DNA from: a phage
Length of the DNA: 64,000 nt
Reading direction: 5' to 3' (one strand)
NCBI GenBank assembly: GCA_018015315.1
Contig: GCA_018015315.1_3629.1
The translations under genes and the position numbers were made by a program. Shown here piece after piece: positions 32,772 through 52,722 of this stretch (position 1 is the stretch's first letter; every line of letters begins with the position of its first letter). The notes under the pieces are model-generated. The model saw only the letters and a list, made by a program, of their open reading frames with translations. It had not been told where the DNA came from and made no database searches.

Positions 32772-32802
32772 TTCTTCACTTACAGAGCACGAGAGACAAC
32801 TC

Positions 32803-33780: not shown

Positions 33781-33813
33781 TGACAGGGGCCAATGGCCCC
33801 TTCTGGAGTTTTA

Positions 33814-35274
33814 ATGGATATCAGAAGTTCAGAAATCATTGCCTCACAAAAAGATGATGCCCTGAGAATGTTGCAGGCTGCACGTATGTATCTCCTTGAA
33901 AAGCTGCCGTTTTATGGCACACTGCTGTCAGGATTGCAGTTCGTAGAAAACCATACATGGTGCTCCACCATGGCAACCGACCATAAACGCATCTATTACA
34001 GTCCTGAGTTCATTATGGGGTTGGCTGATGAACGTAAGGCTATTCTTAAGGCTTCTCTAACTGACGAGCAGTTTGAGATGGCTGAGGTTTTCTATTCCCC
34101 CAAATCTGTGAAAGAGGTGGCCTTTCTTCTGTCGCATGAGGTGGGGCATATTATCTGTGATCACCTGGTCCGTGGTAAAAGCTTTGAGCCGGAACTGTTC
34201 AATATTGCTTGTGATCACGTTATCAACACAGGACTTGTGGTTGACTTTAGCAAGCCTCCTTGTGTTTTCTTCCCGAAGGGGAAAAGCACTACGTTCGTGA
34301 AAGGTAAGCCTTTTGGCTTCTTAGCCAGCTGCTACTGCGATATGAAGTTTCATGGATGGATTGCTGAGAACGTTTATGCAGTTCTTGATAAGCAAAGAGA
34401 TCAGAATAACGGTAAAAGTAAGAACGGTAAAGGTGAGAACTCTCAAGGTGATAAGCGACAAACAGATGATCACATGAGTGGGAACGGTGGCACCAGTGAT
34501 GATCTTGGAAAAGCTATAGGGTATGATCAGCCACAACCTGTAATCAGCCAATCTGATAAAGATCAGGCCATGCAGGACTCTGGTGATATGCTGGAGGCAG
34601 CAATGCAAGCGTCCGGAGGCCGTTGCCCCGAGGCGGTGCGTGAGTTTGTCAAGAACAGAGGTAAGCCTGTAATCAACTATATAGACATCATTAAGCAACG
34701 CATGTTGTCTAAACGAAAGGCTGAACTGACCTACAGAAAACCTGGTCGCCGATCTGGGTCTTTGACCAGCACAATGCGAAAAGTTGGGGCTATAAACAAG
34801 AACCAGCACGTTATTGTTCCTGGTCGTAATCCGGAAAACACTATAGATATTGTGGTGGCTTTAGACGTTTCTGGCTCGATCTCTCAAAGAACTTTAAAGA
34901 AAATGTTCAATGAAATCACCGGATTGTGCAATCTGTATAAAGAGTTTAAGGTTACAATGTTCTGTTGGTCAACTGAGGTTGGAGAGGTTAAAGTATACAC
35001 TCGCGGCAACATAGACGAGATGATTAACTATGAGGTCCACTCAACATGGGGCACAACAGCTGCTTGCGTGTTCGAGTATCTGGATGCCAACATACCGAAT
35101 GCAAAAGATGTCATCGTCCTGACCGACCTATACTTTGAGCATAACTTTGAACAAAAGGTTGTTGACAACAAGTGGAAAAAGTACGATACTTTATGGGTTC
35201 TAACCGAAGGGTATAATAAAAATTATATCCCGAGCTTTGGGAAAACTGTGGAATTAATCGAGTACGCTAAGTAA
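33814..35274 (+). CDS. metallopeptidase-like + von Willebrand factor A domain protein
   Basis: HExxH motif LSHEVGHIICDH; MIDAS motif VVALDVSGSIS; start MDIRSSEII with GGAG SD. Confidence 0.75.
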   Translation: MDIRSSEIIASQKDDALRMLQAARMYLLEKLPFYGTLLSGLQFVENHTWCSTMATDHKRIYYSPEFIMGLADERKAILKASLTDEQFEMAEVFYSPKSVKEVAFLLSHEVGHIICDHLVRGKSFEPELFNIACDHVINTGLVVDFSKPPCVFFPKGKSTTFVKGKPFGFLASCYCDMKFHGWIAENVYAVLDKQRDQNNGKSKNGKGENSQGDKRQTDDHMSGNGGTSDDLGKAIGYDQPQPVISQSDKDQAMQDSGDMLEAAMQASGGRCPEAVREFVKNRGKPVINYIDIIKQRMLSKRKAELTYRKPGRRSGSLTSTMRKVGAINKNQHVIVPGRNPENTIDIVVALDVSGSISQRTLKKMFNEITGLCNLYKEFKVTMFCWSTEVGEVKVYTRGNIDEMINYEVHSTWGTTAACVFEYLDANIPNAKDVIVLTDLYFEHNFEQKVVDNKWKKYDTLWVLTEGYNKNYIPSFGKTVELIEYAK

Positions 35275-35289
35275 GAGAGGAGGTTATTT

Positions 35290-35553
35290 ATGGCAACAGA
35301 GTTAAAATTTGCATCAAACCGTAAAACTAAGAAGTATCTGTCCTCAGTAGCTCCAGGCACTGTGGTGATGTTTGTTGATGAACTTGGGGATGTGAATACA
35401 GCACTTGTTGTAAAATCACATCCTGCAAACATATATGTTGGGGTATTTGACCTGTTCAGAAAGGTGTTTGTAGAACTACCTCACAGTTTGGTTGTTACAG
35501 AAATGGATGCCTGCATAGAAATTCTTGGCGAAGTTATGGTGGAGGAACAATAA
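35290..35553 (+). CDS. paralog 1 of tandem small-gene array (87 aa)
   Basis: Shares GTVV...FDL...LP...VTE.D..I.ILGE pattern with next three genes; SD GAGGAGG. Confidence 0.55.
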   Translation: MATELKFASNRKTKKYLSSVAPGTVVMFVDELGDVNTALVVKSHPANIYVGVFDLFRKVFVELPHSLVVTEMDACIEILGEVMVEEQ

Positions 35554-35819
35554 TGGCTACTAGCATTGTATTCAATTCTAAGGTGAAGAACAAAAAGCGT
35601 GCAGACAGTTTTCCGTGTGGGACCGTGGTAAGTTGCGACGGAGACGGCATTCAAAACATAGTTATGATTGTCAAAACAGGAGAACATTGTGTGTGGGGGT
35701 TCGATTTAGAAAATAATGAGTTGTACGATCTGCCGCCAAACATGAAAGTTACAGAGCTTGACACCAAAATTACCATCCTTGGAGAGGCAAGCTATTCAAA
35801 AGAAGGAGGAGAACAATGA
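35553..35819 (+). CDS. paralog 2 of tandem small-gene array (88 aa)
   Basis: Pattern as paralog 1; start overlaps previous stop. Confidence 0.55.
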   Translation: MATSIVFNSKVKNKKRADSFPCGTVVSCDGDGIQNIVMIVKTGEHCVWGFDLENNELYDLPPNMKVTELDTKITILGEASYSKEGGEQ

Positions 35820-36079
35820 CCACAAAAATCACTATCGCAGAACCGAAAGCTAACACTCAACCTATCGAAAAGTTTAAGTGCGGTGAGGTGGTAACATTCA
35901 CACCAGATAATGAAGATGCTAAGATTTTCGCAATGGTCACAGCTGAGTGGATGTGTGACAACACCACACAGGTTCTGCGTTTTGACACCTATCTTACCGA
36001 CGAAATCAGGAACGACAAGATCGTGACTGGTGTGGATACTGAGATTGTTTTCTACAAGAGCTTTTTAGAGGGTTTCTGA
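35816..36079 (+). CDS. paralog 3 of tandem small-gene array (87 aa)
   Basis: Pattern as paralog 1; 4-nt overlap. Confidence 0.55.
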   Translation: MTTKITIAEPKANTQPIEKFKCGEVVTFTPDNEDAKIFAMVTAEWMCDNTTQVLRFDTYLTDEIRNDKIVTGVDTEIVFYKSFLEGF

Positions 36080-36080
36080 T

Positions 36081-36314
36081 ATGGCAAAAATTCGTAAATT
36101 ATCCAGCAATCAGGTTGTGAAAGACTTTGAATCTGGAGAGATTCTGTATGTTCGTGATGCAGATGACGAATGTGAAGATCTTGTTATGTTGGTGGGGCAC
36201 GCTGAGGACGGATGCATCCAAGCTGTTTTTCTTGAAACAGCTATGGTGCACTGGATAGAGCTGGACCTGAAAGCACGAAAACCTAAAGCAGAAATCCTGA
36301 TTTACGAAGATTAA
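36081..36314 (+). CDS. paralog 4 of tandem small-gene array (77 aa, more divergent)
   Basis: Weaker match to the paralog pattern. Confidence 0.5.
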   Translation: MAKIRKLSSNQVVKDFESGEILYVRDADDECEDLVMLVGHAEDGCIQAVFLETAMVHWIELDLKARKPKAEILIYED

Positions 36315-36330
36315 CAAAAAGGAGAGAGCC

Positions 36331-36780
36331 GTGTTGAGCAAACGTGAATGCGACAGCATTAGCCTGAATTCTTATAAGAAACAATGGTTTGGAGTGGAAG
36401 TTTGCCGACTGCGGCTAGGCTCCTACCTGAACTTCGTTTATTATGAAAGCGATAGTCGTATCGTTTCTTATGAAGTGTTCTACACTAAGAACACCTTCGA
36501 ACTGCGCCGTAAAGTGGATGGTGGGAGAACTACCCCCCAGAATAATTGGGAAACTATCCTACCTACAGATGTTATAGGAAGTCCACTGAATGTATCTGAA
36601 GATGAAAATCTTATGGTTCATGCTATGATGGGACTTGACAGCTTAGAGCTGGCGATCTATGATATGTCCATCGAAGCAGTTAAGCTGGACTACATCGAAA
36701 ACACTTTAGAGGAAGGTATCAAGAAGTTTCTCAGTGAGAAATTAAAAGACCACTTTCATAAGGAGCTATACCTGTTATGA
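36331..36780 (+). CDS. hypothetical protein (149 aa)
   Basis: ORF track; non-ATG start likely. Confidence 0.5.
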   Translation: MLSKRECDSISLNSYKKQWFGVEVCRLRLGSYLNFVYYESDSRIVSYEVFYTKNTFELRRKVDGGRTTPQNNWETILPTDVIGSPLNVSEDENLMVHAMMGLDSLELAIYDMSIEAVKLDYIENTLEEGIKKFLSEKLKDHFHKELYLL

Positions 36781-37022
36781 AGACCCGTAAAGAACGTAAC
36801 AAAATTTTACCTGGAGCTCTAGAACACCTGATGAAGTGCAGATCTATTTGGCACTCTGCCAAGGAAGGGCAGAAGGTGGTTGTGGTTAGTGACAATACCA
36901 ACCCGTTTGGAGATTATACCACTATGATGGCCCCGTATGTCCGTGATGGTGTTGTGGAAGTGGTCCCTTACAACGGTCTGCATGAACGGCACTTTGAAAG
37001 CACTTTGCTAGTGGAGCTATAG
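36777..37022 (+). CDS. hypothetical protein (81 aa)
   Basis: ORF track; 4-nt overlap. Confidence 0.45.
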   Translation: MKTRKERNKILPGALEHLMKCRSIWHSAKEGQKVVVVSDNTNPFGDYTTMMAPYVRDGVVEVVPYNGLHERHFESTLLVEL

Positions 37023-37024
37023 TC

Positions 37025-37591
37025 ATGGCGGTCAATGTGGCTTACAACACAGGAAAGCTTGACAGAGACATTGGGTGTCTTGTCCTTTCAGATACAGAAG
37101 AGTATTGGGGTTATGGGTTGCTGTCAGACCCACACCCGAGCAACCTTGTATCAACAGTGCTATACCGCTACGACCCTGTGCCAACGGTACACGACAAAGA
37201 CATTCACGACCTCCGGATCAAGTGTCTGGAAGATCTGCTGAACAATGGTTGCAACGATCTGCGGGTAGCCAAAGAGAAGCTTACAAACATTCACAAAGAG
37301 GAAGTGATGAGCACCCTCAGTAAGAGATCAGTGCACAAAAAGATGATGCTGAACTTTGCAATGGGTATCTACATGGACGGGTATAAGGGAGGTGATCCGA
37401 TTCTCAAGCTTCGCTGCCCAACACTGTGGGAAAGAGTGGTTGACAGTAAGGACGGTACTGCCCTGCTTGAGCTACACACTGCAGGTTGGATTTGGAGGTA
37501 TGTGGACGGATACCCTCTGTGGGCATGTGGACCTGGGGAATTTGTTGACAGACCTAGCGCGGTGGTGGACTTACTATTGCAGTTTGAATAA
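37025..37591 (+). CDS. hypothetical protein (188 aa)
   Basis: ORF track. Confidence 0.55.
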   Translation: MAVNVAYNTGKLDRDIGCLVLSDTEEYWGYGLLSDPHPSNLVSTVLYRYDPVPTVHDKDIHDLRIKCLEDLLNNGCNDLRVAKEKLTNIHKEEVMSTLSKRSVHKKMMLNFAMGIYMDGYKGGDPILKLRCPTLWERVVDSKDGTALLELHTAGWIWRYVDGYPLWACGPGEFVDRPSAVVDLLLQFE

Positions 37592-37648
37592 AAAGGTGAG
37601 TTATAAGGTATTCATACACCTACCAACAATACAACAGGAGAGACTGAG

Positions 37649-37924
37649 ATGACGAAAGAAGAGGCCGACGTATTAGATTTTGCACTAGAGGCTACGCAGG
37701 AGGCTTTGGTGTTAGCTTGGAAAATGAACCAGCGTGCTGCAGAATGCAACCGCCGCATCAATGAGATTCTGGGCATGTCCATGTATGATTTCACTATGCA
37801 TGCTGGAGAGATTCCTGAATTAACTGCAGAGATGAATGATCTTGACAATAAGATTAATATCATTCTGAAGACAGCAGAAACAACTCACCAAACCGCCCGT
37901 AAATTTATCAACGAGAAGGTGTGA
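37649..37924 (+). CDS. hypothetical protein (91 aa)
   Basis: ORF track. Confidence 0.45.
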   Translation: MTKEEADVLDFALEATQEALVLAWKMNQRAAECNRRINEILGMSMYDFTMHAGEIPELTAEMNDLDNKINIILKTAETTHQTARKFINEKV

Positions 37925-38400
37925 ATATGGACTACAGCTACTGCGGGGAAGAAGTTCCTTTTAACTACAGCAATCTTACCACGAGCAATCCATATGAGAC
38001 TCGCCACGGCACACACATCATTGCCATTGACTTTGATGGAACGTTTAATGCGAGCCCTTTCATCTTCTCCCGCCTGATCAGGGATCTGAAGAAGGAGAGG
38101 TGGACAGTCTACCTTGTGACTTCTCGGTTCATCACTCAAGACAACGTGGACATTGAATATTGGCGCAAGGAGCTTGATGTTGGGGTGTTTTATACTGGCG
38201 GTGTTCAGAAGGCAGCCTACCTGGCGCAGTTTGATATCTACCCAGATATCTGGATTGATGATTCTCCGGCATGTATTCCGGCTAAAAATCAGTTAGAGTT
38301 TGCAATGAAGGAGATTGAGTACAAGTCTGATGCTAAGCGGAACGGATGGCCCTTTATTATTGAAGATTACCCAGACCCTGAGCCGGAGAAAGAGCCATGA
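37921..38400 (+). CDS. HAD-superfamily phosphatase, possible nucleotidase
   Basis: HAD motif I IAIDFDGTF, motif II YLVTSR, motif IV WIDDSP. Confidence 0.6.
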   Translation: MNMDYSYCGEEVPFNYSNLTTSNPYETRHGTHIIAIDFDGTFNASPFIFSRLIRDLKKERWTVYLVTSRFITQDNVDIEYWRKELDVGVFYTGGVQKAAYLAQFDIYPDIWIDDSPACIPAKNQLEFAMKEIEYKSDAKRNGWPFIIEDYPDPEPEKEP

Positions 38401-38570
38401 AACGAAGATATCATTACCTGATGTGGAAGTTATATCATGGTGCTGCTAAAGCTTACCGCACCGTGTTTAGCAATGACAATCACTGCATTATGTTACACCT
38501 TACCGCCATTAAACATCACAATGAGTGGATTCGTGCAATCGTGATAGGTGACAAAGACTTTAAGTAAGGT
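38397..38570 (+). CDS. hypothetical small protein (57 aa)
   Basis: Hand-translated MKRRYHYLMWKLYHGAAKAYRTVFSNDNHCIMLHLTAIKHHNEWIRAIVIGDKDFK; ATGA overlap with HAD gene stop. Confidence 0.35.
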
Positions 38571-38618
38571 ATGCCTCAAAAACGTAATAGTGTGGCTTTC
38601 TAGATGGAGACTGACTAA

Positions 38619-38999
38619 ATGTGCAAGTGTAAATCATATAATTGGAAAGTGAAAGGTGCCAAGCATCCAAATGTTATCGTTGATGTGCCTAAAAAGCTCC
38701 GTGACGGCAAAAAACGTGTGTGCCTTGATAAGTGCATGGCTAAACCTATCATGAGTCTATGGGCGGCAGGATTGAAAACTCTAAACTGCTGCTGTGGTCA
38801 TAACAAAGATGTTCCAAGCATCATTATCCCAGAAGATGCAGATCCTAAAGCTTATGCCAAAATACTGACCCGCTATCCCAGCACCTTCCTGATCGGAAAA
38901 TGGTGTCACGATGAACTTCAATGGTGGATAGCCTATGGTAGTATAGGCACTACTTTTGGCTTCCCAGCTTTGTCAGAGCGCTATGTCAAAGTGTCATAA
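38619..38999 (+). CDS. Cys-rich protein (126 aa)
   Basis: ORF track; Cys clusters CKCKS, CLDKC, NCCCGH. Confidence 0.5.
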   Translation: MCKCKSYNWKVKGAKHPNVIVDVPKKLRDGKKRVCLDKCMAKPIMSLWAAGLKTLNCCCGHNKDVPSIIIPEDADPKAYAKILTRYPSTFLIGKWCHDELQWWIAYGSIGTTFGFPALSERYVKVS

Positions 39000-39103
39000 T
39001 AGAATTTAAGGCCTCAAACGAGGCCTGTGCCTTCATAAATTGCCCCACCCTATGTGATTGCCTTCCTGAAACAAACACCCTCTTAAATCGCTTAAAATTA
39101 AGC

Positions 39104-39132
39104 TTGACATCAACGCAGAATTTTTATATGAT
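39104..39132 (+). promoter_or_regulatory. sigma70-type promoter
   Basis: -35 TTGACA, 17-nt spacer, -10 TATGAT; SD GAGGAG and ATG 39163 downstream. Confidence 0.5.
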
Positions 39133-39162
39133 TATCCCACCAACCAAGCAGAGGAGACTGTC

Positions 39163-39570
39163 ATGGATAATCTTACAAATATAAAAGTCGAAATTGTTAA
39201 GCTAAAATTCTTAGGCTTTCGAGACCCCAGCTCTATAACAGCTATAATCATGGATACCCATTTTACAGCAGGCAAGGAATACACTGCCGTCCGTTATACT
39301 TGCGGGGATCATAAATCTGCCTACAGTGTTAATACAAACCTCGGTGAGGGATATTTTATCCGTGATATTACGGATCATTTGTGGGGAATGTGGGAGTTGG
39401 TGAAGGAAGAGGGTAACTCACTCCCCAAAGAGATTTGGGTGCATACCTTCCACACAGGTAAGTTTGGAGGCACGGAACATAAATCTATTCACTACGATGA
39501 AGAAAGCGCCCTCAAGCAACAAGCTGTTCTTGGCGGGTCTGTAGAAAAATTTATTAAATGCGAGGACTGA
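39163..39570 (+). CDS. hypothetical protein (135 aa)
   Basis: ORF track; promoter 39104-39132 and SD GAGGAG upstream. Confidence 0.55.
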   Translation: MDNLTNIKVEIVKLKFLGFRDPSSITAIIMDTHFTAGKEYTAVRYTCGDHKSAYSVNTNLGEGYFIRDITDHLWGMWELVKEEGNSLPKEIWVHTFHTGKFGGTEHKSIHYDEESALKQQAVLGGSVEKFIKCED

Positions 39571-39573
39571 TAA

Positions 39574-39774
39574 ATGGCTGATTTTTGTAAAGACTGTTCT
39601 GAAGAGTTGTTTGGTCACGATTGCGGAGATCTGGAAGGACTAATCACAGAAGATCAGTGGAAGGAAGGTTATGCAGCACCTGTTATCTGCGAAGGTTGCG
39701 GCTATATCTACGTTGACCACAAAGGTAAACGCGTCCAGCCGTCTGAAGATGGGTCGTGTTGGGAATATTATTAA
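39574..39774 (+). CDS. zinc-ribbon-like small protein (66 aa)
   Basis: CKDC...CEGC Cys pairs; followed by bidirectional terminator. Confidence 0.45.
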   Translation: MADFCKDCSEELFGHDCGDLEGLITEDQWKEGYAAPVICEGCGYIYVDHKGKRVQPSEDGSCWEYY

Positions 39775-39775
39775 T

Positions 39776-39812
39776 TATAAAAAGAAAGGGGCCGTTTGGC
39801 CCCTTTTTATTT
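39776..39812. terminator. bidirectional terminator between convergent blocks
   Basis: Stem GGGGCC/GGCCCC with GTTT loop, A-run before and TTTTTATTT after; between plus gene end 39774 and minus gene end 39821. Confidence 0.65.
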
Positions 39813-39820
39813 ACCCTCCG

Positions 39821-42800
39821 TTAACGAGAGAAAGTTGCATAAGCTTCAAGATCATACTGCTGATCACCAGGAAGCATGGCACCTATGGAGCCAAACCCCA
39901 TGACCCTGCCTTCTACTGCCAACTGCAGTCTGAACCCTACCCATCCGGAACTTCTTGCAGCCTCGATGTTATCGCTATACCCGAAAGTAGCAAGCTCGTC
40001 AACTCCAGATCCGAACAGCAACTGGATCTGATTTCTCGGAAGCCCTATAATTTCAGGAATATATGCTCCGAAGTACACCATTTGCCCTACTTTAGGACCG
40101 CTGCCATACTCCATCGGTCTGCTTGCAGAGAAAGTCTTCATTCCTGAAGTCCCTGCCGGATTTGGGTATGCCCCGTTTGTTGCTCTGCCTATCCACATTC
40201 TCCACTGTGGTGTCATCTGTTTGACAGTGAAAGATGTTGAAGACGTCTTGCGGCCTGCATCATCCGTAACTACAAACGTTATGTTGACATTACCGGGCGC
40301 TTTAAATGTTACCAGTCCTGTGTTAGCATCAACAGTTGCTATGCCAGTATTACTACTTTCCCAAGTCTTTCTGATCCCTGTTACGTTGGAAGGGGTGATA
40401 GAGGGTTCCTGCATCTGCAGTTTACCGCCAACAATACCTATGCCATTGCCAGGGTTATACAACACCCCAACCTCATCTACAATATTCCCAGCCTTGAGGC
40501 TGTATTTTCTTGAGAAGTTGTAGGTTCCGTTATAAGTATGTGTCCCTGAGAATGTGACATCGGCCTTGCCGTGGGAGATGCAAACCAAAGCATACTTCCT
40601 GTCAGGCAATGTAGCCCCGGTCTCTGGGTGAGTTTTACCCACTTGGAACACGCCAGGATCGGTAGAGTCGTGGCTATCCCTGATAGAGCTTGGACCACCC
40701 ATTAACTGAGACAAGCAATCCCTTACCCACGTCCAGTTATTATCACTGGAGAAGTCAACAGTCAAATCAAACACAACCCACTCGTTAGGCTTCCAAACAG
40801 GTGTTGTAATAGACTTGCCTACGCCACCACCCTGAAGGGTAGATGACTGCTCAGTGATCAATGCTGCATAAGCCAAAGTCCCTAAACGCAAGGTCTGGCT
40901 TGCGGTTCTCACCACCTTAGAATCGGCATCTGTGAAGTTGTTGATAACCTGGAAGGTGCCATAAGTGTTTTTACAGGTGATTCTTGCATTCAGTGTGTCA
41001 ATCTTTCTCACATCTGCCATGGCAGTGTTAGACACAGAGAAGTCAGAAGCTTTGGCTGAGTTTGCTGCAACAACCGGAACAACGTTAAGAGTTGCGTTGA
41101 ACTGGCAAGCAGGAGTAACCAGCAGCCTGTTATCACCTATTTGCTTCCATGAAACACTTTGAACAGGTAGATTCCATTTGATACCTGAGAAAACTTTAGC
41201 AACCCTTGGTCCCAGAGCTCCAGTCCTGTTGTCTTTACAACACATAGACATGGTGATCGTTGACGGAGTGGCCTGACCAAACAATTGCTGTGCTTTTGCA
41301 GAAGACATGGTGTAGAAATTGTCCTTAACAAACTCATCAGCTGCTAACGATCCGTCAGATTTCCACCACTGCACCTGATACCCTGTCTTATCCCAGCCCC
41401 CAACCTGCTTCAAGTCTTCCCAAGAGATTTCCAGATCTCCCGTGGTAGGATTGATTGCAGCAGTCCCTGGTGTGCCGGATGACCACAATGGAATATCGAA
41501 CCACGCTGGTTTAACAGATTGCACTGCGTTAGGACCTATTGCAGCAGCAAGTTGTTGGCCCATCAATACGCGAGCATCTTTTACCAGACCCCACTCAATC
41601 ATGGATCCAGAGTAACCTTCTTTCTTGTAGGCCGAGGATCCGTTTAAGTGGATAAGTCTGCTTGTGCCGAAGTTATACGCTCCACCACCGTTGTCGTCTG
41701 CAAAGTTGTACACAATTCTATCCCTGGTGTCTTTCCACGCTCTACCACCTATTTCATAGTTGTGGTCATAGCAACGTTGCAGTGTTGTCCAGCAAATGAT
41801 AGCCATCCTTCTGCCATTGCTGAAGCCGAAGGCATTATCGTTAAGCTCTCTCCACAAATAGCAGTTGGTAGTCCACATGGCTCTGTGGATGTTAAACCAG
41901 TTGACAGATCTTGCAGCATTGTTGTAGTCGGTTCCCTCTAGAGTAGGCCACACTGCATTAACCAGCATGTCTTCTGTCCCCGCATCCATCAGGAATCCTC
42001 TTACCTTTTTACCCATTCCTACTCTGTCTTTAGCAATCCAGCTGCCAAACAGTCTCAGTTTGGGGCCAATAACAGTTTCCTCCGGATGCTCAAGAGAAAC
42101 ATATTTCAAGTGTACTGTAGGATCACCATAGGTGCCATCGCAGACACTTTTGTGCATGTTTTCACCAAGGTCCAGACGAATACCTGTAAGAGTTTTTGTG
42201 TTGTCTGTGAGTTTGTCTGTCAAGTCAAACTCATACCACCACCATCCAGCACCTAACAATACCTTCTTACAACGCTGTGCATCTGTATCAGATATTCTCT
42301 TATCCCCTGCAAAAGGCGAATCTGCAAATTGGTAGTGCAGAGCAATTTCAAACGGGTGTGTTGATGTTCCGTTTTCAGCAGGAACTTGCTTACCTATCAG
42401 GTCGCACTTAATGATCATCACGACACGTCTGTATCCATTGGCTACCGGAACGTCGAACGGATACTTCTCTCCGTTCATATTTGCATGGACAGACGAGAAG
42501 ACTATATACGGGTCAACAGCATTACCCAGGGTTTCAGGACCAGGGATCATTTTGTATTTCTTGACTTGCCCCATAATATAGTCGCTGCCATAGGTTGCAG
42601 CCTCGAAGCAAGATCCCCCGTTAGGTAGTTCCCCCGGACCCCAGAAAAATGCGCCATAACAGTTATAAAACCACTTGTTAGGGTCGTATTTGTTCTTGAA
42701 GGTCTGAACCTCGTTGGCCTGTTTTGTCAAGAAAACCTGCGTATCTGTGAAGATTGCAGGGTTTACTCTCGCCTGACGCGGAGGGTAACCTGTAGTCTGG

Positions 42801-45457
42801 TTAAACCACTGATTACAAGAGATATCTCTCATATAGTCATAATCGGAATATTTGTTTGCATCTTCGTTCCAACACAGGTTCAGGTTGGTGCCGCCCATGC
42901 ACACAATATATTCTGTGACATATTTATCACTTCTGGTTGGGATTCCTATGAACCATCTGTTAACAGGCTCGTCCCAAGCTGTCCGCTCATCTTTAACGCA
43001 GATAGCGATCCAGTCATGTGTTCCTGTTTTCTTGCACACATCGCGCTTCATACCATAATAAAACTCTTTAGTATTTGGCTCAGGTGCATTTATCAGGTAA
43101 CTCCACGCCTGATTTGCATAGGTTCCATTGGTGCGAGGATCATGGTCAAAGGCATACATGATGATCCTTTCTCCACCAAGATGTTCACCGAGGGTAACTT
43201 TGATGTTTACATCACCGTAACCGTTACGAACTATATCCATATTGTCAATAGAGATGCCTCTAGGGGTGTAGGCAATTTTCAGAGAACTATCTTCACTGGT
43301 ACCACCCAGAGTAATACCTATATTGTTTGTTGTTCCATCAACATATTTTACTGTAGCTTCCCAACGTATCCCGAAATACCCTGCGTTGTGGCTAACAACT
43401 TTCAGTGTGCGAGCACCTGGGTGAGGCTTACCAGGATCAGGCCATGGATCAGCATGCTCGTGCACTGTTAACGATGTTCCGTTCTGCTCGTTAACCTGCA
43501 GCATCTTCCCGCCTTTGCCGTTAGGGTTGAACTCCCACAAGGCTTGTGTTTTCACAAGATTGTCATAGATACTGCGTCTCTGGTCGTAGATCTCCTGGGT
43601 CACATCATACGTGGTAGATCCGGCATCTTGCCTGTGAAGCCTAACCATATATGCTGTATCGCTTTCTGGAGCAGGCTGAGAGCCGTTAAGCCCAAAGTAT
43701 ACAGTATCGTTTACATGGAACTGTTTCTTCCTGCCAACAGTGTGCCATTTGCCGTCTGACGGATATGCAGGAACTATAATGTTCCAGTTTAAGTTTCGTG
43801 TGGTGTGGGTTCTTCCAGCGCCATGTTTATCATGATAGGTGATCTTGACAGAATACAGACCGCGTCTGTTGATGTTACGGTTATGCTGGGTAACCACAAT
43901 CTCGTTAGCACCGCCATGGTTCCAGTTAGTAGAGAACTGATAGTTTGCATCTGTAACAACAGTACCTGCAGCGTTCACGAGCTCAATCTTGTCAATAATG
44001 AACGTAGCACCCTCCGGTTGAGGTTTCAACTTCATTTTGACAGTGTCGCCAATGTATATATTGCTAACACTGCTTACACCATTGACATCAAAGATGTCTT
44101 CGATACTCCAGCTATCTACCGGAACATTTTTATACCAATTCTCAGGAATCTCTGTGAACCCTTGGCTGTTAAGTCTGCCGCCGAACAGGTTATTAGATCC
44201 TGAAAAACTACCACGTGGTATTCCTGACCACCAAAGCTTTCCATTTACCACACAGAATGTGCCTAAGAAACCTTCCCTGTGGATCCCTTGAAAATAAACG
44301 CTTTCTGTCCAGCTTACTGGCTCTGTCTGTTCAACAAACTTAGCTGTTGCCAGCGCTCTGTAATGAATAAAATTGGCCCTAGGATTATTATTAGCAGATT
44401 GAGCACCAATATCGTTACACAGGTTTCTGGAGAAACCACGGTACTGTTTTGTACCATTATTGAAGAAAATTCCACTAGTCCCGTACCCGCGAGCCATAAT
44501 TACTTCATGGGTATAGGTGATGTTAAGGCTTCTCCACGTGTCGTCACCCCAAACATCCTGACCATAAAACACATTAACAAGTTGTTGGTCATCAGGTTTG
44601 TGCATCCTTTCTGTGGCTATAATTGCCCCGTTAGGACCACACATAAACCCTTTCCACTCCTCATCTGCAGGAATGCCTCTCAAATCGTTACGAGTAATCT
44701 GCACAGGAGGCCAAACAAGGTCGTTTCTATTGTTATTTCTCAGAAAGTCGTATCCAGCAATCCAGAAACCTCTAGGACCACCGAAAATAACAGAGTTGTC
44801 ATGCACCTCGCAGTTGATGCTTGGGTTTTTCCAAGGTCCTGTTTCAGGATTTTCCGATGTCTCACCAATCTTTACAGGGGTTGCATGCTGATTTTTATCT
44901 ACATGCAAAGATCCGTAGGTGTTGTTACCAGATCCATATAGGTTAAGTATGCCAGTGCCTTCTGCCTCTGCAATAACCCAGACAGTGTTGTTAATACCAC
45001 CCATCACCTCAATAAGGCGCTCTGGGTGGGTGTCAAGGTGCAACCCTTTAACAATCTGTTCCGGAAGAGGTGTCCACTCGTTTACGCAAACATCATTACC
45101 GCCTGCCGCAGTGGATCCGATAAGACCTGCAGTGCAGCCGATGTAGAAAAACTGGTTATCAAAAGTCCGGATCACAAACGCACGGTCTGCTCTCCACACA
45201 TGATCAACATTCCAGGCTGTTTCGCTTGGGTAGTTTATAGGGTTACGATCCCCAGTGCGACACTCCCCGAACTTGTTATAGCCCGTAATATTAAGCTGAC
45301 CATCATCAAAAAGTATAGCTAAGCTATTTACATAGGATACTGTGTTGCTTGTACCATCACTGTTGTCTATTGGGTATGACAGAACAGCAAGTTCCTTAAT
45401 TCCACCCCTCTTATCGAGGAAATGACGACCAAGTTTTAGCAAAGGGATTGGAAGCAT
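39821..45457 (-). CDS. giant tail fibre / adhesin-like structural protein (1878 aa) with Ig-like Big_2-type domain
   Basis: Uninterrupted 5.6-kb ORF; Gly/Asn/Thr/Ser-rich fibre composition; segment ESSNTGIATVDANTGLVTFKAPGNVNITFVVTDDAGRK resembles Big_2. Confidence 0.8.
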   Translation of the reverse strand: MLPIPLLKLGRHFLDKRGGIKELAVLSYPIDNSDGTSNTVSYVNSLAILFDDGQLNITGYNKFGECRTGDRNPINYPSETAWNVDHVWRADRAFVIRTFDNQFFYIGCTAGLIGSTAAGGNDVCVNEWTPLPEQIVKGLHLDTHPERLIEVMGGINNTVWVIAEAEGTGILNLYGSGNNTYGSLHVDKNQHATPVKIGETSENPETGPWKNPSINCEVHDNSVIFGGPRGFWIAGYDFLRNNNRNDLVWPPVQITRNDLRGIPADEEWKGFMCGPNGAIIATERMHKPDDQQLVNVFYGQDVWGDDTWRSLNITYTHEVIMARGYGTSGIFFNNGTKQYRGFSRNLCNDIGAQSANNNPRANFIHYRALATAKFVEQTEPVSWTESVYFQGIHREGFLGTFCVVNGKLWWSGIPRGSFSGSNNLFGGRLNSQGFTEIPENWYKNVPVDSWSIEDIFDVNGVSSVSNIYIGDTVKMKLKPQPEGATFIIDKIELVNAAGTVVTDANYQFSTNWNHGGANEIVVTQHNRNINRRGLYSVKITYHDKHGAGRTHTTRNLNWNIIVPAYPSDGKWHTVGRKKQFHVNDTVYFGLNGSQPAPESDTAYMVRLHRQDAGSTTYDVTQEIYDQRRSIYDNLVKTQALWEFNPNGKGGKMLQVNEQNGTSLTVHEHADPWPDPGKPHPGARTLKVVSHNAGYFGIRWEATVKYVDGTTNNIGITLGGTSEDSSLKIAYTPRGISIDNMDIVRNGYGDVNIKVTLGEHLGGERIIMYAFDHDPRTNGTYANQAWSYLINAPEPNTKEFYYGMKRDVCKKTGTHDWIAICVKDERTAWDEPVNRWFIGIPTRSDKYVTEYIVCMGGTNLNLCWNEDANKYSDYDYMRDISCNQWFNQTTGYPPRQARVNPAIFTDTQVFLTKQANEVQTFKNKYDPNKWFYNCYGAFFWGPGELPNGGSCFEAATYGSDYIMGQVKKYKMIPGPETLGNAVDPYIVFSSVHANMNGEKYPFDVPVANGYRRVVMIIKCDLIGKQVPAENGTSTHPFEIALHYQFADSPFAGDKRISDTDAQRCKKVLLGAGWWWYEFDLTDKLTDNTKTLTGIRLDLGENMHKSVCDGTYGDPTVHLKYVSLEHPEETVIGPKLRLFGSWIAKDRVGMGKKVRGFLMDAGTEDMLVNAVWPTLEGTDYNNAARSVNWFNIHRAMWTTNCYLWRELNDNAFGFSNGRRMAIICWTTLQRCYDHNYEIGGRAWKDTRDRIVYNFADDNGGGAYNFGTSRLIHLNGSSAYKKEGYSGSMIEWGLVKDARVLMGQQLAAAIGPNAVQSVKPAWFDIPLWSSGTPGTAAINPTTGDLEISWEDLKQVGGWDKTGYQVQWWKSDGSLAADEFVKDNFYTMSSAKAQQLFGQATPSTITMSMCCKDNRTGALGPRVAKVFSGIKWNLPVQSVSWKQIGDNRLLVTPACQFNATLNVVPVVAANSAKASDFSVSNTAMADVRKIDTLNARITCKNTYGTFQVINNFTDADSKVVRTASQTLRLGTLAYAALITEQSSTLQGGGVGKSITTPVWKPNEWVVFDLTVDFSSDNNWTWVRDCLSQLMGGPSSIRDSHDSTDPGVFQVGKTHPETGATLPDRKYALVCISHGKADVTFSGTHTYNGTYNFSRKYSLKAGNIVDEVGVLYNPGNGIGIVGGKLQMQEPSITPSNVTGIRKTWESSNTGIATVDANTGLVTFKAPGNVNITFVVTDDAGRKTSSTSFTVKQMTPQWRMWIGRATNGAYPNPAGTSGMKTFSASRPMEYGSGPKVGQMVYFGAYIPEIIGLPRNQIQLLFGSGVDELATFGYSDNIEAARSSGWVGFRLQLAVEGRVMGFGSIGAMLPGDQQYDLEAYATFSR

Positions 45458-45465
45458 TGTGTTCT

Positions 45466-45498
45466 CCAGATAAGAAAACCGCCCCGTCAGGAGCGGTT
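45466..45498 (-). terminator. possible terminator/attenuator between fibre genes
   Basis: Stem AACCGC/GCGGUU with 10-nt loop then UUCUUAUC. Confidence 0.4.
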
Positions 45499-47538: not shown

Positions 47539-48585
47539 TTAAGCATAAGATATAGTGATCCATTGACCATTTACAAGTTTTTGGATAGCACCTGTCCAGT
47601 AGTCACCTTGATAAGGGTGTTTATAAGCGTAGTTACCAGAGCACATCACATGTCCAGGGTAGACTCTTGACTCTCTGTAGGTGGTTTTGAAACGGTTTGC
47701 TATCCTTACATCATCAACCCCTCTGCTAGGCATAGGAATAGTAAGGTTACCACTACTGTCTGCGCCGTTACCATTTACCCTGCGGACCACGTTTCTTCCA
47801 CCAACTGTTGCATATTGGCCCCTGACGGTTTCATCGTTACAATCAACTCTTCCACCTATTTGAGCGCTTCCGCAGGATTGTTGTCCATTAACAGTGGCTC
47901 TTGGTATAGTAACTGCATTGGCATTTGCAGAGGAACTTTTTGCATCGTTGCATTCAAGATTTCCTTGGATAGCCAGTCTTGCACGGTTGGCAGTTATAGC
48001 ATTGAGCTTCATAGCCGAAAACACAGGATGCCCACCAGAAGGTTGAAATCTCCAACGGAACCCGTCTATTTGGTGAGAAGGATCATCAAGGTCTGTGCCG
48101 TCAGCACCGCCGATGTTGTCCATAATCCAGAAGTCCATAGTCGTCTTGTCTGGAGTTATGGTGGTATATATTGCCGCATTGTCTGTTGACGCAGATGCAA
48201 ACTCGATTCTTTGAAGACCTAAAGTTTGAGTCTGAGTCATTATGTCTCCAGACTTGTCAACATACAGATCGTCCATTTCTTCAGGCGAGTATACATTGAG
48301 AACTTGACGTGCAGCAGCTTTGTCTGGAACGTCTGCTAGATTATTAGTGACCCTTAAGAATCTATTGTCCCATCCTGGGACAACATCCTCTGTTAAATGC
48401 TTTAACCACGCAGAAAGCATGTGAAGTTCAAAGTTAACAACTTCACATGCCACTCTTTGTGTCATATCCCAACCTTTCAATCTCTCTTCTTTTTTTGGTT
48501 GAGATTTATTCAACTCTCCCGTATTTTCAAGCACAACATCCTGATTGGCCCAAATATCAAGAGGGATAACTGGTTTAGTCATCAC
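47539..48585 (-). CDS. tail fibre protein, paralog A (348 aa)
   Basis: Conserved N-terminus and C-terminal tip IQKLVNGQWITISYA shared with 49597..50637; tip resembles recalled P2 gpH C-terminus. Confidence 0.65.
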   Translation of the reverse strand: MMTKPVIPLDIWANQDVVLENTGELNKSQPKKEERLKGWDMTQRVACEVVNFELHMLSAWLKHLTEDVVPGWDNRFLRVTNNLADVPDKAAARQVLNVYSPEEMDDLYVDKSGDIMTQTQTLGLQRIEFASASTDNAAIYTTITPDKTTMDFWIMDNIGGADGTDLDDPSHQIDGFRWRFQPSGGHPVFSAMKLNAITANRARLAIQGNLECNDAKSSSANANAVTIPRATVNGQQSCGSAQIGGRVDCNDETVRGQYATVGGRNVVRRVNGNGADSSGNLTIPMPSRGVDDVRIANRFKTTYRESRVYPGHVMCSGNYAYKHPYQGDYWTGAIQKLVNGQWITISYA

Positions 48586-48997: not shown

Positions 48998-49582
48998 TTA
49001 GAGGGTAGGTCGCTCCGGGAAGAAAATGTCAGGGGCTTTAGATGTATCTATTTCAAGAAGTTTTACCCTGTACATTTTCAAATCTCTGATGTTACGTTTC
49101 TGGTCATCAGTAAGATCATATTCAAGGTCAATCATGTCTTGATAGGCACCAATTCTAGCAGTAGCCCAAGCAAGTTCTGTCTCTATGACACCCTCTGCCT
49201 GTTGAACAAAGAATTCATTGTCTGTGACAAATTCATCACCAACTAAACGCAAAGCGTCGTGGTGAAGCATAATGTTTTCTGGTACCTCTTCTTTTTTGGC
49301 GATAACCACACGAAGACCTGGAGCAGGCCATAGGGCATCAGGTTCTTCTGTAGATGTCTTAAGAATTCCCTTCTCGTCAACAAGTAGGAAGATACAACCA
49401 GGATTTTCTTGTCGTAATGTTCGTGACTGCACATACCAATCGCCATCATCATTACGTAAAAAATACCCAGTGTATGCGGTGTAATCCTCAACCTCTTGAG
49501 GGGTCAGCTCCTTGGTTCCCTTGTTGGGGAGGTATTCGCCAGATCCCGGTTGGTAAAGTTTAAACTCTTGAAGTATTTTCAT
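48998..49582 (-). CDS. tail fibre assembly chaperone (Tfa-like)
   Basis: C-terminal RNIRDLKMYRVKLLEIDTSKAPDIFFPERP matches recalled Tfa signature; directly follows a fibre gene. Confidence 0.7.
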   Translation of the reverse strand: MKILQEFKLYQPGSGEYLPNKGTKELTPQEVEDYTAYTGYFLRNDDGDWYVQSRTLRQENPGCIFLLVDEKGILKTSTEEPDALWPAPGLRVVIAKKEEVPENIMLHHDALRLVGDEFVTDNEFFVQQAEGVIETELAWATARIGAYQDMIDLEYDLTDDQKRNIRDLKMYRVKLLEIDTSKAPDIFFPERPTL

Positions 49583-49596: not shown

Positions 49597-50637
49597 CTAT
49601 GCATAATTAACAGTGATCCATTGACCATTTACAAGTTTTTGTAAAGGTCCTGCCCAGTAGGTTGAACCACGCATCTCTTTTTTGTCACCGAAATGCCAAC
49701 CTGTGACAACGTAGCCGTTGCGAATTGGAGATTCGGAAACGCCGTCAACAAGTCTTGCACCGATTCTGATGTCTTGCACACCTGTCTGCGGGATAGTGAT
49801 CGTTACATCACCGTTGCCGTTAGCTGTCACTCCATTCACGGAGCGCACCACATTTCTGTTACCGACAACACAGTGCTGGCTTCTTACAACCATACTGTCA
49901 CAACTTGCACCACCATTAATATATACTGACCCAGCCGTCAACTGACTAGCCACATTACAGTTGGTGAATGTTGCTGTATTGCTGATAGTAAGGTTATTGC
50001 ACCTCATGTTATCGACAACTTCAACATTGCCTACCACTTTCAACAGCGCACGGTTAGCCGTGATCGCGTTAAGGTACATCAAAGTGAACTCTGGATTAAT
50101 ATCCGGCTGAGTTGGCTGGAATCTCCAACGAAACGCATCTACTGTAGATGTACCACCATCATCAAACGACCCAATATTATCACTTAACCCGAAGTCGAGA
50201 GTTGTCTTATCTGGGCCAATAGTTGTCTCTATCCAAGCCTTATCTGTCTCGGCAGCTTTAAAGTTGATACGTTGCAAACCCAATGGGCCTGTCATTGTAT
50301 CACCTGTAACTTTTACATACCTGGCGTCTGCCTCTTCCTTAGTAATAATCCCAAGGTTTCTACGGGCAACAGGAATGTTCAAAAGATCACTCAAGTTATT
50401 ATCACGTACCAGATAACGGCCTTCTTGAGCGGGGATCTGCTCGTCAGCAATGTATTTTGCCCAAGTTCCGAGCATATTGAAAATATAGTTAAGTTCTTCA
50501 CATGAGGGCTTTTGACCAAGATCCCAACCTTTTCTCCACAAATCATCAATCGGGCGTAGCCTGTTCTGTCTGTGGGTGTTAGGCAGAACCTGATCCTCCT
50601 CTGCCCAAATCTCTAATGGAAAACTAGGTTTTGACAT
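49597..50637 (-). CDS. tail fibre protein, paralog B (346 aa)
   Basis: N-terminus MSKPSFPLEIWAEEDQVLPNT and tip LQKLVNGQWITVNYA shared with paralog A; central region divergent. Confidence 0.7.
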   Translation of the reverse strand: MSKPSFPLEIWAEEDQVLPNTHRQNRLRPIDDLWRKGWDLGQKPSCEELNYIFNMLGTWAKYIADEQIPAQEGRYLVRDNNLSDLLNIPVARRNLGIITKEEADARYVKVTGDTMTGPLGLQRINFKAAETDKAWIETTIGPDKTTLDFGLSDNIGSFDDGGTSTVDAFRWRFQPTQPDINPEFTLMYLNAITANRALLKVVGNVEVVDNMRCNNLTISNTATFTNCNVASQLTAGSVYINGGASCDSMVVRSQHCVVGNRNVVRSVNGVTANGNGDVTITIPQTGVQDIRIGARLVDGVSESPIRNGYVVTGWHFGDKKEMRGSTYWAGPLQKLVNGQWITVNYA

Positions 50638-50649: not shown

Positions 50650-52722
50650 TTATGAGAAGTCTGGCGGGACAACATCCTCTACATACCCTTTCAGAGCAAC
50701 CTGCCCCATATGAAGCACGGTAGAATCTCTAGCGGTAACAGTGATGCTGTCAGACATTACTTGCGGATATGCCCACACATACTGTTTTACCTCAGGGTAT
50801 CTATACTCTATAGTTGCCATGTTTCCGCAAATACATCTCCATAAAAATTCTTGGTAATTCCTGGTTGGGTCGTAGCCATATACCGGAGCAAGCTCTTTAC
50901 TAGGAACGAACCCTGCAAGGTATTGTATTTCAGACGGTTGCCAACCTAACTTAACGATAGGTATGTTTACAGACTCTTTTGCCTTTTCAATACCTCCCTG
51001 CATCACCCAATCGTAGCACTCAGTGCAGAAGAAATCAAGAGCACCTGCTTCCTTTTTATATTGGTCAGCAAGGTTCAGCTTTTGCGTAAGCTCGGTTTCC
51101 ATAATGGTTGGGAAAAACAGCAAAGCTGTCATCTGAGCTGATGCAGCGTGTGCTTTTATTGCCTTTGAAATAGCAGCAATACGAGCGCCAAGCTTACCAC
51201 GACAAAATGCTACATACTTGTCGTAAACACCGCCAGTTTTAGGATCGTCAATAGTCCCAATATCTAAGGCATACTCTCCTGTCTCATCATAAAACGCCTG
51301 TTTTGTAGGGTAATCATAAATACAAGGTCTACGAGTATCGGTATTGTACCACCACCACGGTTCACCAACCTGCATAATCACTGGCAGGTTGTTTCTCATA
51401 GCGACTGATGCAAAATTCTTAAATACTGCAGTAAGGAAATTCATACCCTCTTCAATGGTTGGAGACAGGAGGTAGCTACAAGGTGTATATCCTGTTTTAG
51501 CGTAGTTATCATTCCAGTCTCTTTGGGTCCATTCCAACGGGCAGGCATCGCTGTAAAGCTCAAAACTTACAGACTGCATAACGTCGAAGTTATGTCGTTT
51601 GGCATTGTACATAAAATCATCATGCCATTTATAAGCTGCAGCGTTTAGCGCCCCTGTTCTGTTTATAGACCATTGGGTTCCTGACCATGTGTAGTCATAA
51701 TAATGACTCATACCAACATAATGGTTTATGGTTCCGGTATAGCCCAGACGCTTGATATTGTTCAACACCCTTAAAGGAGATACGTTCCACATATCGTCAT
51801 ATGCGGTGCAGATCCCAACGTCGTGCTCTTTAACCTGAATATTGTTAAGTTGCATCATTTTCCAGCCCGTGTCTGGCTGAAGCAGATCTAGGCGCAACTC
51901 ACACTCTACATTTTCCGTTCTCGGGTCTGTGCTATTACTTACCCAGTCTTTAGGCATGAGCGGTATTAAAATTCTTCTCACCTGTCGAGGATCAACACCC
52001 ATCATGTTGTTGTTCTGATCCATCCCGACGCAGTCCTCGAAATCAATATGAATCTCTGCAACATTCTTATCCTCTGAGATGCTGACAGCATATTGAGCTA
52101 AAGGAACATAGATGATTGTACCATCAACAAGGTCTACAGTCATAATCATCTTTTCAGGAGTGGAGAAGTTGCTGGCATTGGTTATTGACATTCTGAACCA
52201 AAGCTTGGTGTTTCTCATCTCATAGTGATCATCAAACCCAATACCGAAATGGTCATACTTGTCAACTGTTTCCCAAATGCACCCAGCCATACCTCCATAT
52301 GTTCTTGACACTAAACGGTTAATACAACAGTTGTCATCTGCAACAATACAGGTACTTTCAGTCTGCTGAGTGGTTGTAACCCAATATCTTGGGTGAAACA
52401 TTCTCTCCTCGACAGTATCCCAAGATATTCTGTCAAGATTCTCATCTGAAACTATTGTACATTTCGCCCTTTGTGTCCCAATCATCACCCCTTGAGATTT
52501 TGATGAAAACTCCATAAAGAAGCTTCTTGGTAACCTGTTGGGTAATTTGTCAACAATTTCCACTGGGATTTCAATACTGGTTGCCCCAACTGGGATAGTT
52601 ATATCGCCCTCAACATGATCATAATCCCTACCAGGAACGGCAGTATCCTGAACTGTGCGGTAATGAAACCGTGCAGCCATTGTAGAGTAATCACGGTAAG
52701 GTTTAAAAACAGCTGTTGCCAT
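50650..52722 (-). CDS. large structural (tail/baseplate-associated) protein, function unresolved (690 aa)
   Basis: ORF track; sits between baseplate-like genes and fibre genes. Confidence 0.6.
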   Translation of the reverse strand: MATAVFKPYRDYSTMAARFHYRTVQDTAVPGRDYDHVEGDITIPVGATSIEIPVEIVDKLPNRLPRSFFMEFSSKSQGVMIGTQRAKCTIVSDENLDRISWDTVEERMFHPRYWVTTTQQTESTCIVADDNCCINRLVSRTYGGMAGCIWETVDKYDHFGIGFDDHYEMRNTKLWFRMSITNASNFSTPEKMIMTVDLVDGTIIYVPLAQYAVSISEDKNVAEIHIDFEDCVGMDQNNNMMGVDPRQVRRILIPLMPKDWVSNSTDPRTENVECELRLDLLQPDTGWKMMQLNNIQVKEHDVGICTAYDDMWNVSPLRVLNNIKRLGYTGTINHYVGMSHYYDYTWSGTQWSINRTGALNAAAYKWHDDFMYNAKRHNFDVMQSVSFELYSDACPLEWTQRDWNDNYAKTGYTPCSYLLSPTIEEGMNFLTAVFKNFASVAMRNNLPVIMQVGEPWWWYNTDTRRPCIYDYPTKQAFYDETGEYALDIGTIDDPKTGGVYDKYVAFCRGKLGARIAAISKAIKAHAASAQMTALLFFPTIMETELTQKLNLADQYKKEAGALDFFCTECYDWVMQGGIEKAKESVNIPIVKLGWQPSEIQYLAGFVPSKELAPVYGYDPTRNYQEFLWRCICGNMATIEYRYPEVKQYVWAYPQVMSDSITVTARDSTVLHMGQVALKGYVEDVVPPDFS

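Follow-up and report, generated by a model that had tools for sequence, protein, structure and literature searches.

A giant gp27-type protein of a Vequintavirus: an RCC1-like propeller, an orphan core and Ig-like domains in a candidate accessory tail adhesin

The present study deals with a giant gene located at positions 39821..45457 (minus strand) of a phage contig (GCA_018015315.1_3629.1, GenBank assembly GCA_018015315.1), the whole analysed stretch of 64,000 nucleotides being referred to below as the window. The gene encodes one 209-kDa polypeptide made up of some 12 dissimilar domains and, as judged from its sequence, is an ortholog of gp27 of phage rV5 (PHROG 15684, ‘unknown function’) in a Vequintavirus, i.e. 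an rV5-like myovirus. The make-up of the protein argues for a succession of different globular domains, with an RCC1-like β-propeller in front, and not for a classical fibre, and the interpretation offered here, given about even chances of being right, is that of a late, low-copy accessory tail adhesin from a family combining a propeller with immunoglobulin (Ig)-like domains.

The open reading frame (ORF) is a real gene. It runs without interruption from an ATG over 1878 codons plus stop, just as a previous reading of the window made from the sequence alone (the sequence-only reading) had described it, and its product has a predicted mass of 208.6 kDa and an isoelectric point of 6.4. If about 5% of random codons are assumed to be stops, a stop-free run of 1878 codons would, by our estimate, arise by chance with a probability below 1e-40. 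The ratio of nonsynonymous to synonymous substitution rates (dN/dS) is 0.05-0.13 against six orthologs; the ORF is therefore a protein-coding gene under purifying selection. It is the longest ORF of the window, the runner-up having 1279 codons. Large as it is, an ortholog of identical length is already annotated in more than 100 deposited Vequintavirus genomes.

As far as the identity of the protein is concerned, phrog_15684 aligns with it end to end (1-1878/1878, 4339 bits), and 121 phage records are matched at 88-95% amino acid identity, 108 of them with coverage of at least 80%. The closest deposited copy is that of Escherichia phage MiataMamis (89.5% DNA and 94.9% protein identity). In Table S3 of the rV5 genome paper gp27 is listed with 1878 residues and 208,334 Da as ‘conserved hypothetical protein, Big_2’, and the window gene resembles it in colinearity over the 1878 residues, in length, in its place after gp28 and in the flanking hairpins. 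Orthologs of the same length occupy the same place in rV5, in the BASEL collection and in other phages; one of them is bas48_0041 from BASEL, labelled ‘lateral tail fiber protein with intimin domain’, and the labels ‘Ig-like domain-containing protein’ and ‘structural protein with Ig domain’ are also found in the databases for this family. The window gene is a new allele (at most 94.9% protein and 89.5% DNA identity) of a known but unstudied family and not a new kind of gene. It should be mentioned here that 15-20 unannotated GenBank records of the series MG0656xx, named ‘Campylobacter phage’ with Campylobacter jejuni as the host, match the Vequintavirus proteins of the window at ~88-98% protein identity or yield weaker matches equal to those of the Phapecoctavirus records; they are probably mislabelled or contaminant assemblies.

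The domain map (Table 1) combines family searches with two AlphaFold2 models covering the halves of the protein, residues 1-800 (mean predicted local distance difference test, pLDDT, of 48.7) and 761-1878 (mean pLDDT 53.8), both built with a 16-sequence alignment and usable for the individual β-sandwich domains only. The nearly invariant N-terminal peptide, recognizable also in the Phapecoctavirus analog (as MFPIPIF...), is followed by the propeller. Direct matches of the latter are weak, comprising Pfam WD40_RLD (E 8e-5, 22.5 bits, cut-off 150), RCC1_2 (14.4, cut-off 22) and phrog_4219 (E 4e-7), and Foldseek retrieved HERC2, UVR8 and RCC1 at E ~2e-3 with the low-confidence model (pLDDT 48.7). 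Phrog_11922, the Phapecoctavirus family, is matched at E 6e-28 (residues 41-197). The homologous N-termini of Phapecoctavirus and Seunavirus match RCC1 families at 6e-34 to 7e-44, the Seunavirus homolog exceeding the cut-off of the Pfam RCC1 repeat (32.7 vs 21.7). Seven blade-like motifs were read by eye, at residues 45, 93, 157, 221, 277, 327 and 399.

Beyond the propeller and the first Ig-like sandwich lies the lineage-specific core. A profile of residues 780-1335 found only its own family among 1.84e9 representative proteins and nothing at E<=10 among the PDB sequences, phrog_15684 itself being the sole match among the PHROGs. The C-terminal part is better defined. The sequence-only reading had put a Big_2-like segment near the C-terminal third; the domain is indeed present, as the last but one (Pfam match at residues 1682-1733, E 6e-9, 36 bits vs the cut-off of 22.8), but it is found at about 90% of the length, inside that third and not at its start. 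The PDB sequences matching this region are those of the bglH Big_2 domain and the intimin D-domains. The last ~285 residues (1594-1877) match phrog_215, annotated as ‘structural protein with Ig domain’, at positions 150-458 of its 491 (E 1.4e-40), Big_2 and the terminal sandwich together aligning with positions 225-458 of its Ig part. With the C-terminal half Foldseek retrieved cadherin ectodomains, S-layer assembly domains, PrgB and SraP, i.e. generic Ig-like strings, and the fold matches in BFVD are equally generic, coming from Ig-bearing head, tail and fibre proteins including a Hoc-like outer capsid protein. C-terminal Ig-like folds, whose absence the sequence-only reading had named as one thing that would speak against it, are hence predicted with usable confidence.

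The ‘fibre-like composition’ ascribed to the protein by the same reading did not bear scrutiny. The protein is rich in Gly, Thr, Asn and Val and contains 3% Trp, a composition like that of β-rich globular proteins. There were no tandem DNA repeats found in the gene, no internal repeats among 12 segments of the protein compared by hhalign, and no collagen, coiled-coil or β-helix family matches in the Pfam and PHROG scans. Scans for tRNAs and Rfam RNAs also found none.

Full-length homologs outside Vequintavirus make up only 15 clusters, mostly metagenomic (41-91% identity, 1711-1976 residues), and a profile of the 16-sequence alignment run against a set of 5.8 billion proteins returned the same 15 and nothing further. 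Shorter relatives are found in two other genera. The Phapecoctavirus ‘tail protein’ (phrog_11922, e.g. tuntematon gp128) has 890 residues with an RCC1-like part, two Big_2 domains and a different C-terminal region; it shares 41% identity with the giant protein over residues 1-197 (BLASTP E 2e-28) and a second colinear match at residues 393-440. The Seunavirus proteins of the GAP31_232 type (567-570 residues) consist of an RCC1-like part and two Big_2 domains, with ~30% N-terminal identity to the giant protein. These relatives have in common with the latter the RCC1-like N-terminus, the presence of Big_2 and a gene that closes the fibre locus, but they lack the ~1200 residues that in the giant protein separate the propeller from its single Big_2 domain; the additional C-terminal region, leucine-rich-repeat-like by eye, belongs to the Phapecoctavirus protein alone.

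In all four lineages examined—Vequintavirus, Phapecoctavirus, Seunavirus and the P0015 contig—the gene immediately upstream of the propeller-headed one ends in a domain of the gp28 type (45-63% identity); the fibre shafts of these upstream genes differ, although the end domain of ~105 residues is common to them. Within this propeller-plus-Ig family, which is linked to a single type of fibre end, the giant protein is thus an enlarged version. Among the 116 closest phage records, almost all of which bear Vequintavirus names, the end domain shows 96-100% identity; it occurs at 36-51% identity in 252 further records, including the jumbo Asteriusvirus (‘long tail fiber proximal subunit’ of 121Q), and may serve as a tip, a docking site or a folding aid. 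The idea that the gp28 end domain and the propeller always go together was rejected, the tie holding in one direction only. At its other end (residues 6-112), the gp28 fibre shares 44% identity with the N-terminal part of a tailspike that degrades colanic acid in both Phapecoctavirus (L002 3846-4160) and Justusliebigvirus (L006 2904-3218), and this common N-terminal module is probably a baseplate-docking module carried by otherwise unrelated proteins.

The evolutionary pattern differs along the gene. Invariant alignment columns number 254 of 450 in the N-terminal part, 218 of 980 in the middle and 18 of 448 in the C-terminal part, so that conservation drops steeply from the N- to the C-terminus, with the propeller as the most conserved part. 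When compared with the phages CarlMeissner and MiataMamis, the giant gene exhibits 87-89% DNA identity and its neighbours 95-99.9%; in the same comparison the first ~235 codons retain 96-99% nucleotide identity, the rest falling to 80-90% within a divergent block of ~39000-44750. With its 5.6 kb, i.e. ~4% of the genome, it is the most divergent large gene in its part of the genome. The divergent block passes the 3′ end of the giant gene into the convergent plus-strand genes (~39000-39750, e.g. 39163-39570), showing 84-87% DNA identity there vs 96-99% farther out, and the exchanged segment is therefore not bounded by the giant gene.

Among seven Vequintavirus isolates, one nearly identical pair excepted, the synonymous divergence (dS) of the giant gene reaches 0.23-0.89 with dN/dS of 0.04-0.13 (about 0.08), the dS of the adjacent gp28 gene for the same isolate pairs being 0.06-0.19. 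Near-identical blocks alternate with blocks of saturated synonymous divergence, in a pattern that differs from partner to partner. The C-terminal 285 residues fall into allele classes of ~99, 89 and 78% identity, the version present in the window being common (99.3%) only to phage MiataMamis, and two metagenomic homologs are devoid of the last two domains. The gene is thus a mosaic put together by recombination from old alleles, its 5′ end being conserved, and is maintained under purifying selection; the N-terminus stays with the conserved genome backbone and the remainder is exchanged by recombination. A conserved 5′ end with a mosaic remainder is the pattern usually seen in phage genes for host contact.

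The giant gene is the last one of a leftward baseplate/tail-fibre operon and directly follows the gp28 fibre gene. The gene order of the operon (Table 1) is kept even on a metagenomic contig the giant protein of which is only 41% identical. The two best terminator-like hairpins on the minus strand are those flanking the giant gene, both of them listed also by the rV5 authors, as t028 and t027. Only 20 nucleotides lie between the upstream hairpin (45498-45477) and the ATG, and no promoter-like site was found in them; the giant gene is therefore probably transcribed by read-through, which would take place at a reduced level.

Table 1 Features of the giant gene, its product and the surrounding operon (positions in the window; residues numbered along the giant protein unless stated otherwise)
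Feature	Position	Strand	Remark
Terminator-like hairpin (rV5 t027/t026)	39785..39806	-	14 nt past the giant gene stop; common to the convergent plus-strand genes
Terminal β-sandwich, residues 1753-1878	39824..40201	-	closes the chain; at least 3 allele classes within Vequintavirus
Big_2 Ig-like domain, residues 1666-1752	40202..40462	-	Pfam; pLDDT 80-92
Most variable stretch, residues 1429-1665	40463..41173	-	~22% identity to distant homologs; second half a confident β-sandwich
fn3-like β-sandwich, residues 1332-1428	41174..41464	-	AlphaFold2 pLDDT 60-75; weak Pfam fn3 match, E 0.09
Lineage-specific core, residues 566-1331 (~770 residues)	41465..43762	-	without homolog outside the family
Trp/Cys-rich, predicted-helical part of the core, residues 1126-1331	41465-42082	-	pLDDT ~25-35
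β-sandwich in the core, residues 965-1125	42083-42565	-	pLDDT 72-85
Ig-like β-sandwich, residues 449-565	43763..44113	-	AlphaFold2 strands, pLDDT ~65-80; without family match
RCC1-like β-propeller, residues ~20-445	44123..45400	-	weak direct matches plus homology to RCC1-like N-termini
N-terminal peptide MLPIPLLKL..., residues 1-19	45401..45457	-	nearly invariant in all homologs
GGAG ribosome-binding site of the giant gene	45464..45467	-	read from the sequence, 6 nt before the ATG
Terminator-like hairpin (rV5 t028)	45477..45498	-	between the gp28 stop and the giant gene ATG; rV5 Table S4
gp28 fibre (rV5 gp28), 581 residues	45506-47251	-	phrog_4549, E 6.5e-251
gp28 C-terminal domain, ~105 residues	45509-45823	-	precedes the propeller-headed protein in every lineage examined
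Short tail fibre	47539-48585	-	phrog_4465
Tail fibre chaperone	48998-49582	-	between the two short-fibre genes
Short tail fibre	49597-50637	-	phrog_4465
N4-sheath-like deacetylase fibre, 690 residues	50650-52722	-	PF23844, PF23845 (E 5e-80)
Gene between baseplate wedge and deacetylase fibre	52722-53408	-	placed by transcription order
Baseplate wedge	53420-54910	-	next in transcription order
gp37-like protein, lambda-J-type domains	55016-58855	-	first listed in transcription order

With regard to the rest of the locus, the deacetylase fibre combines N4 non-contractile tail sheath N-terminal and TIM-barrel domains, and the two short tail fibre genes flanking the chaperone gene are paralogs. Downstream of the giant gene, a plus-strand block (32737-39570) is situated between two minus-strand blocks, the GC/AT skew flipping its sign at the switches of the coding strand (32000 and 39800). 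Four neighbouring small ORFs within this block (35290-36314, plus strand; 87, 88, 87 and 77 residues) resemble diverged tandem paralogs sharing the pattern G(T/E)VV...VTE.D..I.ILGE, a repeat at the DNA level not being detectable.

The proposal of a ‘long fibre or decoration/adhesin’ made in the sequence-only reading is partly supported. The gene position, the domain make-up and the evolutionary pattern all agree with it; the classical fibre and the capsid decoration are disfavoured as discussed below. The accessory adhesin may be envisaged as follows. The conserved N-terminal part would anchor the protein to the virion, the distal domain of the gp28 fibre being a plausible attachment site, and the chain, presumably a monomer, would probably extend outwards as a thin string some 50 nm long (our estimate from the number of domains). 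The variable C-terminal Ig-like modules might make weak, reversible contacts with host surface polysaccharides or mucus, the orphan core possibly adding to the binding, and such contacts would raise the encounter rate ahead of the binding of the N4 glycan receptor/enterobacterial common antigen (NGR/ECA) by the deacetylase fibre and the subsequent binding of the lipopolysaccharide (LPS) core by the short fibres. The hairpin lying directly before the start codon would keep the amount of the giant protein below that of the fibre protein, and on laboratory K-12 the protein is probably dispensable. The K-12 receptors of Vequintavirus phages have been assigned to other fibres, namely NGR/ECA to the deacetylase fibre, as well as to the LPS core (PMC8594841; bioRxiv 10.64898/2026.04.02.716166).

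Several observations weigh against this interpretation. The gp28-type end domain is present in 368 records in all, many of them without a propeller partner: downstream of it there is nothing in Klebsiella phage Iguana, a DUF4376 protein in 121Q and a propeller-less Big_2 protein in the phi92-like phage muut (Justusliebigvirus). This last positional analog (L006 7334-9220) carries Big_2 and a C-terminal match to phrog_15324 (‘tail sheath and receptor binding protein’), and since it does without the propeller, the propeller may not be the anchor. In the only proteomic record, that of rV5, gp27 is covered to 3.1% by 9 spectra of 3 peptides, which are non- or semi-tryptic, rank 1, 9 and 14 and are thus on a level with the hits to rIIA; the rV5 authors do not count gp27, and a later paper counts only six rV5 proteins confirmed by mass spectrometry. 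The identification being marginal, rV5 proteomics was rejected as proof of a structural role, but gp37, a certain tail protein, is detected equally weakly in rV5 (4 peptides), and the weak detection of gp27 therefore says little. Both structure models are of low overall confidence (pLDDT 48.7 and 53.8), and the monomeric state and glycan binding are to be taken as proposals.

Dispensability is a further point of this kind. Frame breaks in the giant gene are found in 6 of 60 records vs 4 of 60 for gp37 used as control, i.e. at the same rate per kb, so that the small lesions may be sequencing errors; this concerns naswa, ime, Alma and EPFV3 with frameshifts and phita32 with a premature stop. Recurrent frameshifts were thus rejected by the gp37 control as proof of dispensability. 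In ECP26 the gene is annotated as two coding sequences. The copies of APECc02 (L012 5001-7673), frameshifted and devoid of residues ~440-1416, and of V18 (L013 2501-7063), with several frameshifts and devoid of residues 91-316, are the only ones with deletions large enough to hint at dispensability; they are suggestive only and could be assembly errors. On the side of a virion role, three RCC1-like phrog_4219 proteins are well detected by mass spectrometry in the virions of W70, a phage of the same subfamily, which would support such a role of the giant protein by domain homology only.

Among the other explanations, a classical trimeric lateral tail fibre subunit—the distal half of a gp28-gp27 fibre, recognizing one specific receptor and deciding the host range—is unlikely. 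It is implied by the BASEL label, and the giant gene closes the fibre locus, adjoins gp28 and has the conserved 5′ end and variable distal remainder typical of fibre genes. Allelic variation in Vequintavirus affects three large genes of the fibre locus, of which it is one (PMC8594841), and the outer glycan used on O157:H7 varies among Vequintaviruses, Bas48 using the group 4 capsule and EV146 not (bioRxiv 10.64898/2026.07.23.740414). The giant proteins of these two phages, however, are 99.5% identical, and with 9 residues differing, the gene was rejected as the cause of the group 4 capsule use of Bas48 on O157:H7. Neither a coiled coil, collagen, β-helix or triple β-spiral nor a C-terminal chaperone was matched in Pfam and PHROG, and the models show separate β-sandwiches; RCC1 propellers and strings of Ig domains are normally single-chain folds. 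Isolated phages carry copies with large deletions, and the ‘intimin domain’ of the label amounts to one Big_2 domain. As regards this domain, the giant protein is similar to intimin/invasin in one Big_2 resembling the intimin D-domains, but it is without the β-barrel anchor, LysM and the C-type lectin tip; membership was rejected, the NCBIfam intimin models scoring ~20 bits vs cut-offs of 1400-2050 and aligning only with residues 1696-1734.

A Hoc-type decoration protein that protrudes from the capsid and binds mucus or cells is very unlikely, even though phrog_215, to which the C-terminal part is matched, belongs to the category head and packaging and appears to include Hoc-like decoration proteins, a Hoc-like protein is found among the BFVD matches, and the Hoc-like proteins of FelixO1-like phages possess three Ig-like domains (PMC11821841). 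The giant protein shares with T4 Hoc, Sf14 gp20 and phrog_215 the Ig-like string at the free end, and by analogy weak adhesion is possible. It differs from them in being 4-5 times larger, in being encoded in the baseplate/fibre operon and not in the head module, and in lacking a match to the capsid-binding part, which is N-terminal in proteins of the Sf14 gp20 type (PMC11821841): the first ~150 positions of phrog_215 are unmatched, only the Ig part being covered. The same Ig modules occur also in major tail proteins and fibres, and in rV5 the head is already decorated by the abundant protein gp61. Least probable is a late protein that is not part of the virion and works within or at the surface of the infected cell, for instance as a surface or released decoy-binding protein. 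The RefSeq note ‘cell wall surface anchor’, the proteomic detection that is not solid, the terminator-like hairpin that sets the gene apart from the structural genes and the degraded copies in viable phages would fit such a role. By eye, though, the N-terminus contains no signal peptide or membrane anchor, in four genera the gene shares with the fibre genes both its strand and its late place in the operon, the RCC1-like relatives are virion proteins in W70, and the undoubted tail protein gp37 is no better detected in rV5. Compatible with the accessory adhesin, and quite unlikely though less so than a capsid decoration, is the possibility that the core (residues ~780-1331) adopts a new fold and acts as an enzyme or lectin, e.g. 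a polysaccharide depolymerase, which would make the protein a tool for degrading glycans carried on the tail. Many Trp, Cys and acidic residues are invariant there across homologs of only 41-58% identity, in motifs such as EDMLVN.VWP, NWFN.HRAMW, CW..L.RCY, EIGG..W and SMIEWG; the region is predicted as helical with an inserted β-sandwich, and other fibres of Vequintavirus-type phages carry glycan-modifying domains (PMC8594841). Against this, there is no match to a family, the PDB or the representative library, the pLDDT of the helical model is only 25-35, and no catalytic motif can be named.

The accessory adhesin proposed here has its nearest functional counterparts in accessory side fibres. 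The L-shaped fibre pb1 of T5 and Stf of lambda speed up adsorption by reversible glycan binding, are dispensable on laboratory strains and prone to loss; they are trimeric, with shafts and chaperone domains, and their genes have a conserved 5′ end and a variable remainder. The giant protein is like them in its proposed role and in the pattern of its gene, but the searches brought up nothing that resembles them in sequence or fold.

Taken together, the giant protein falls within the known kinds of phage host-contact proteins, and what had been known of its family is its occurrence, inconsistently annotated, in more than 100 genomes. Added here are the domain map, the link to smaller propeller-plus-Ig proteins with a fixed gene position, the orphan core and the mosaic evolution. 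It is a rather speculative but conceivable extension that the giant protein and its shorter relatives form a separate class of appendages, i.e. single-chain ‘beads-on-a-string’ adhesins attached to a trimeric fibre by an RCC1-like propeller that docks on its tip domain. In that case the many ‘regulator of chromosome condensation’ proteins of large-phage virions (W70, CB7, phAPEC6) would serve as adaptors or lectins at fibre tips and not as DNA-condensing proteins, and the orphan core of 550-770 residues might represent a new glycan-binding or glycan-cleaving fold. The fixed place after one fibre end type provides a concrete docking hypothesis and also hints at another role for the virion proteins labelled ‘chromosome condensation’. 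Their broad host range makes rV5-like phages frequent candidates for therapy and biocontrol, and it is still openly unresolved which gene builds which of their fibres (PMC8594841; PMC13450770). If the giant protein is an accessory adhesin, it would offer a handle for engineering the adsorption to capsulated or mucus-embedded hosts, and the annotations of the family could be harmonised.

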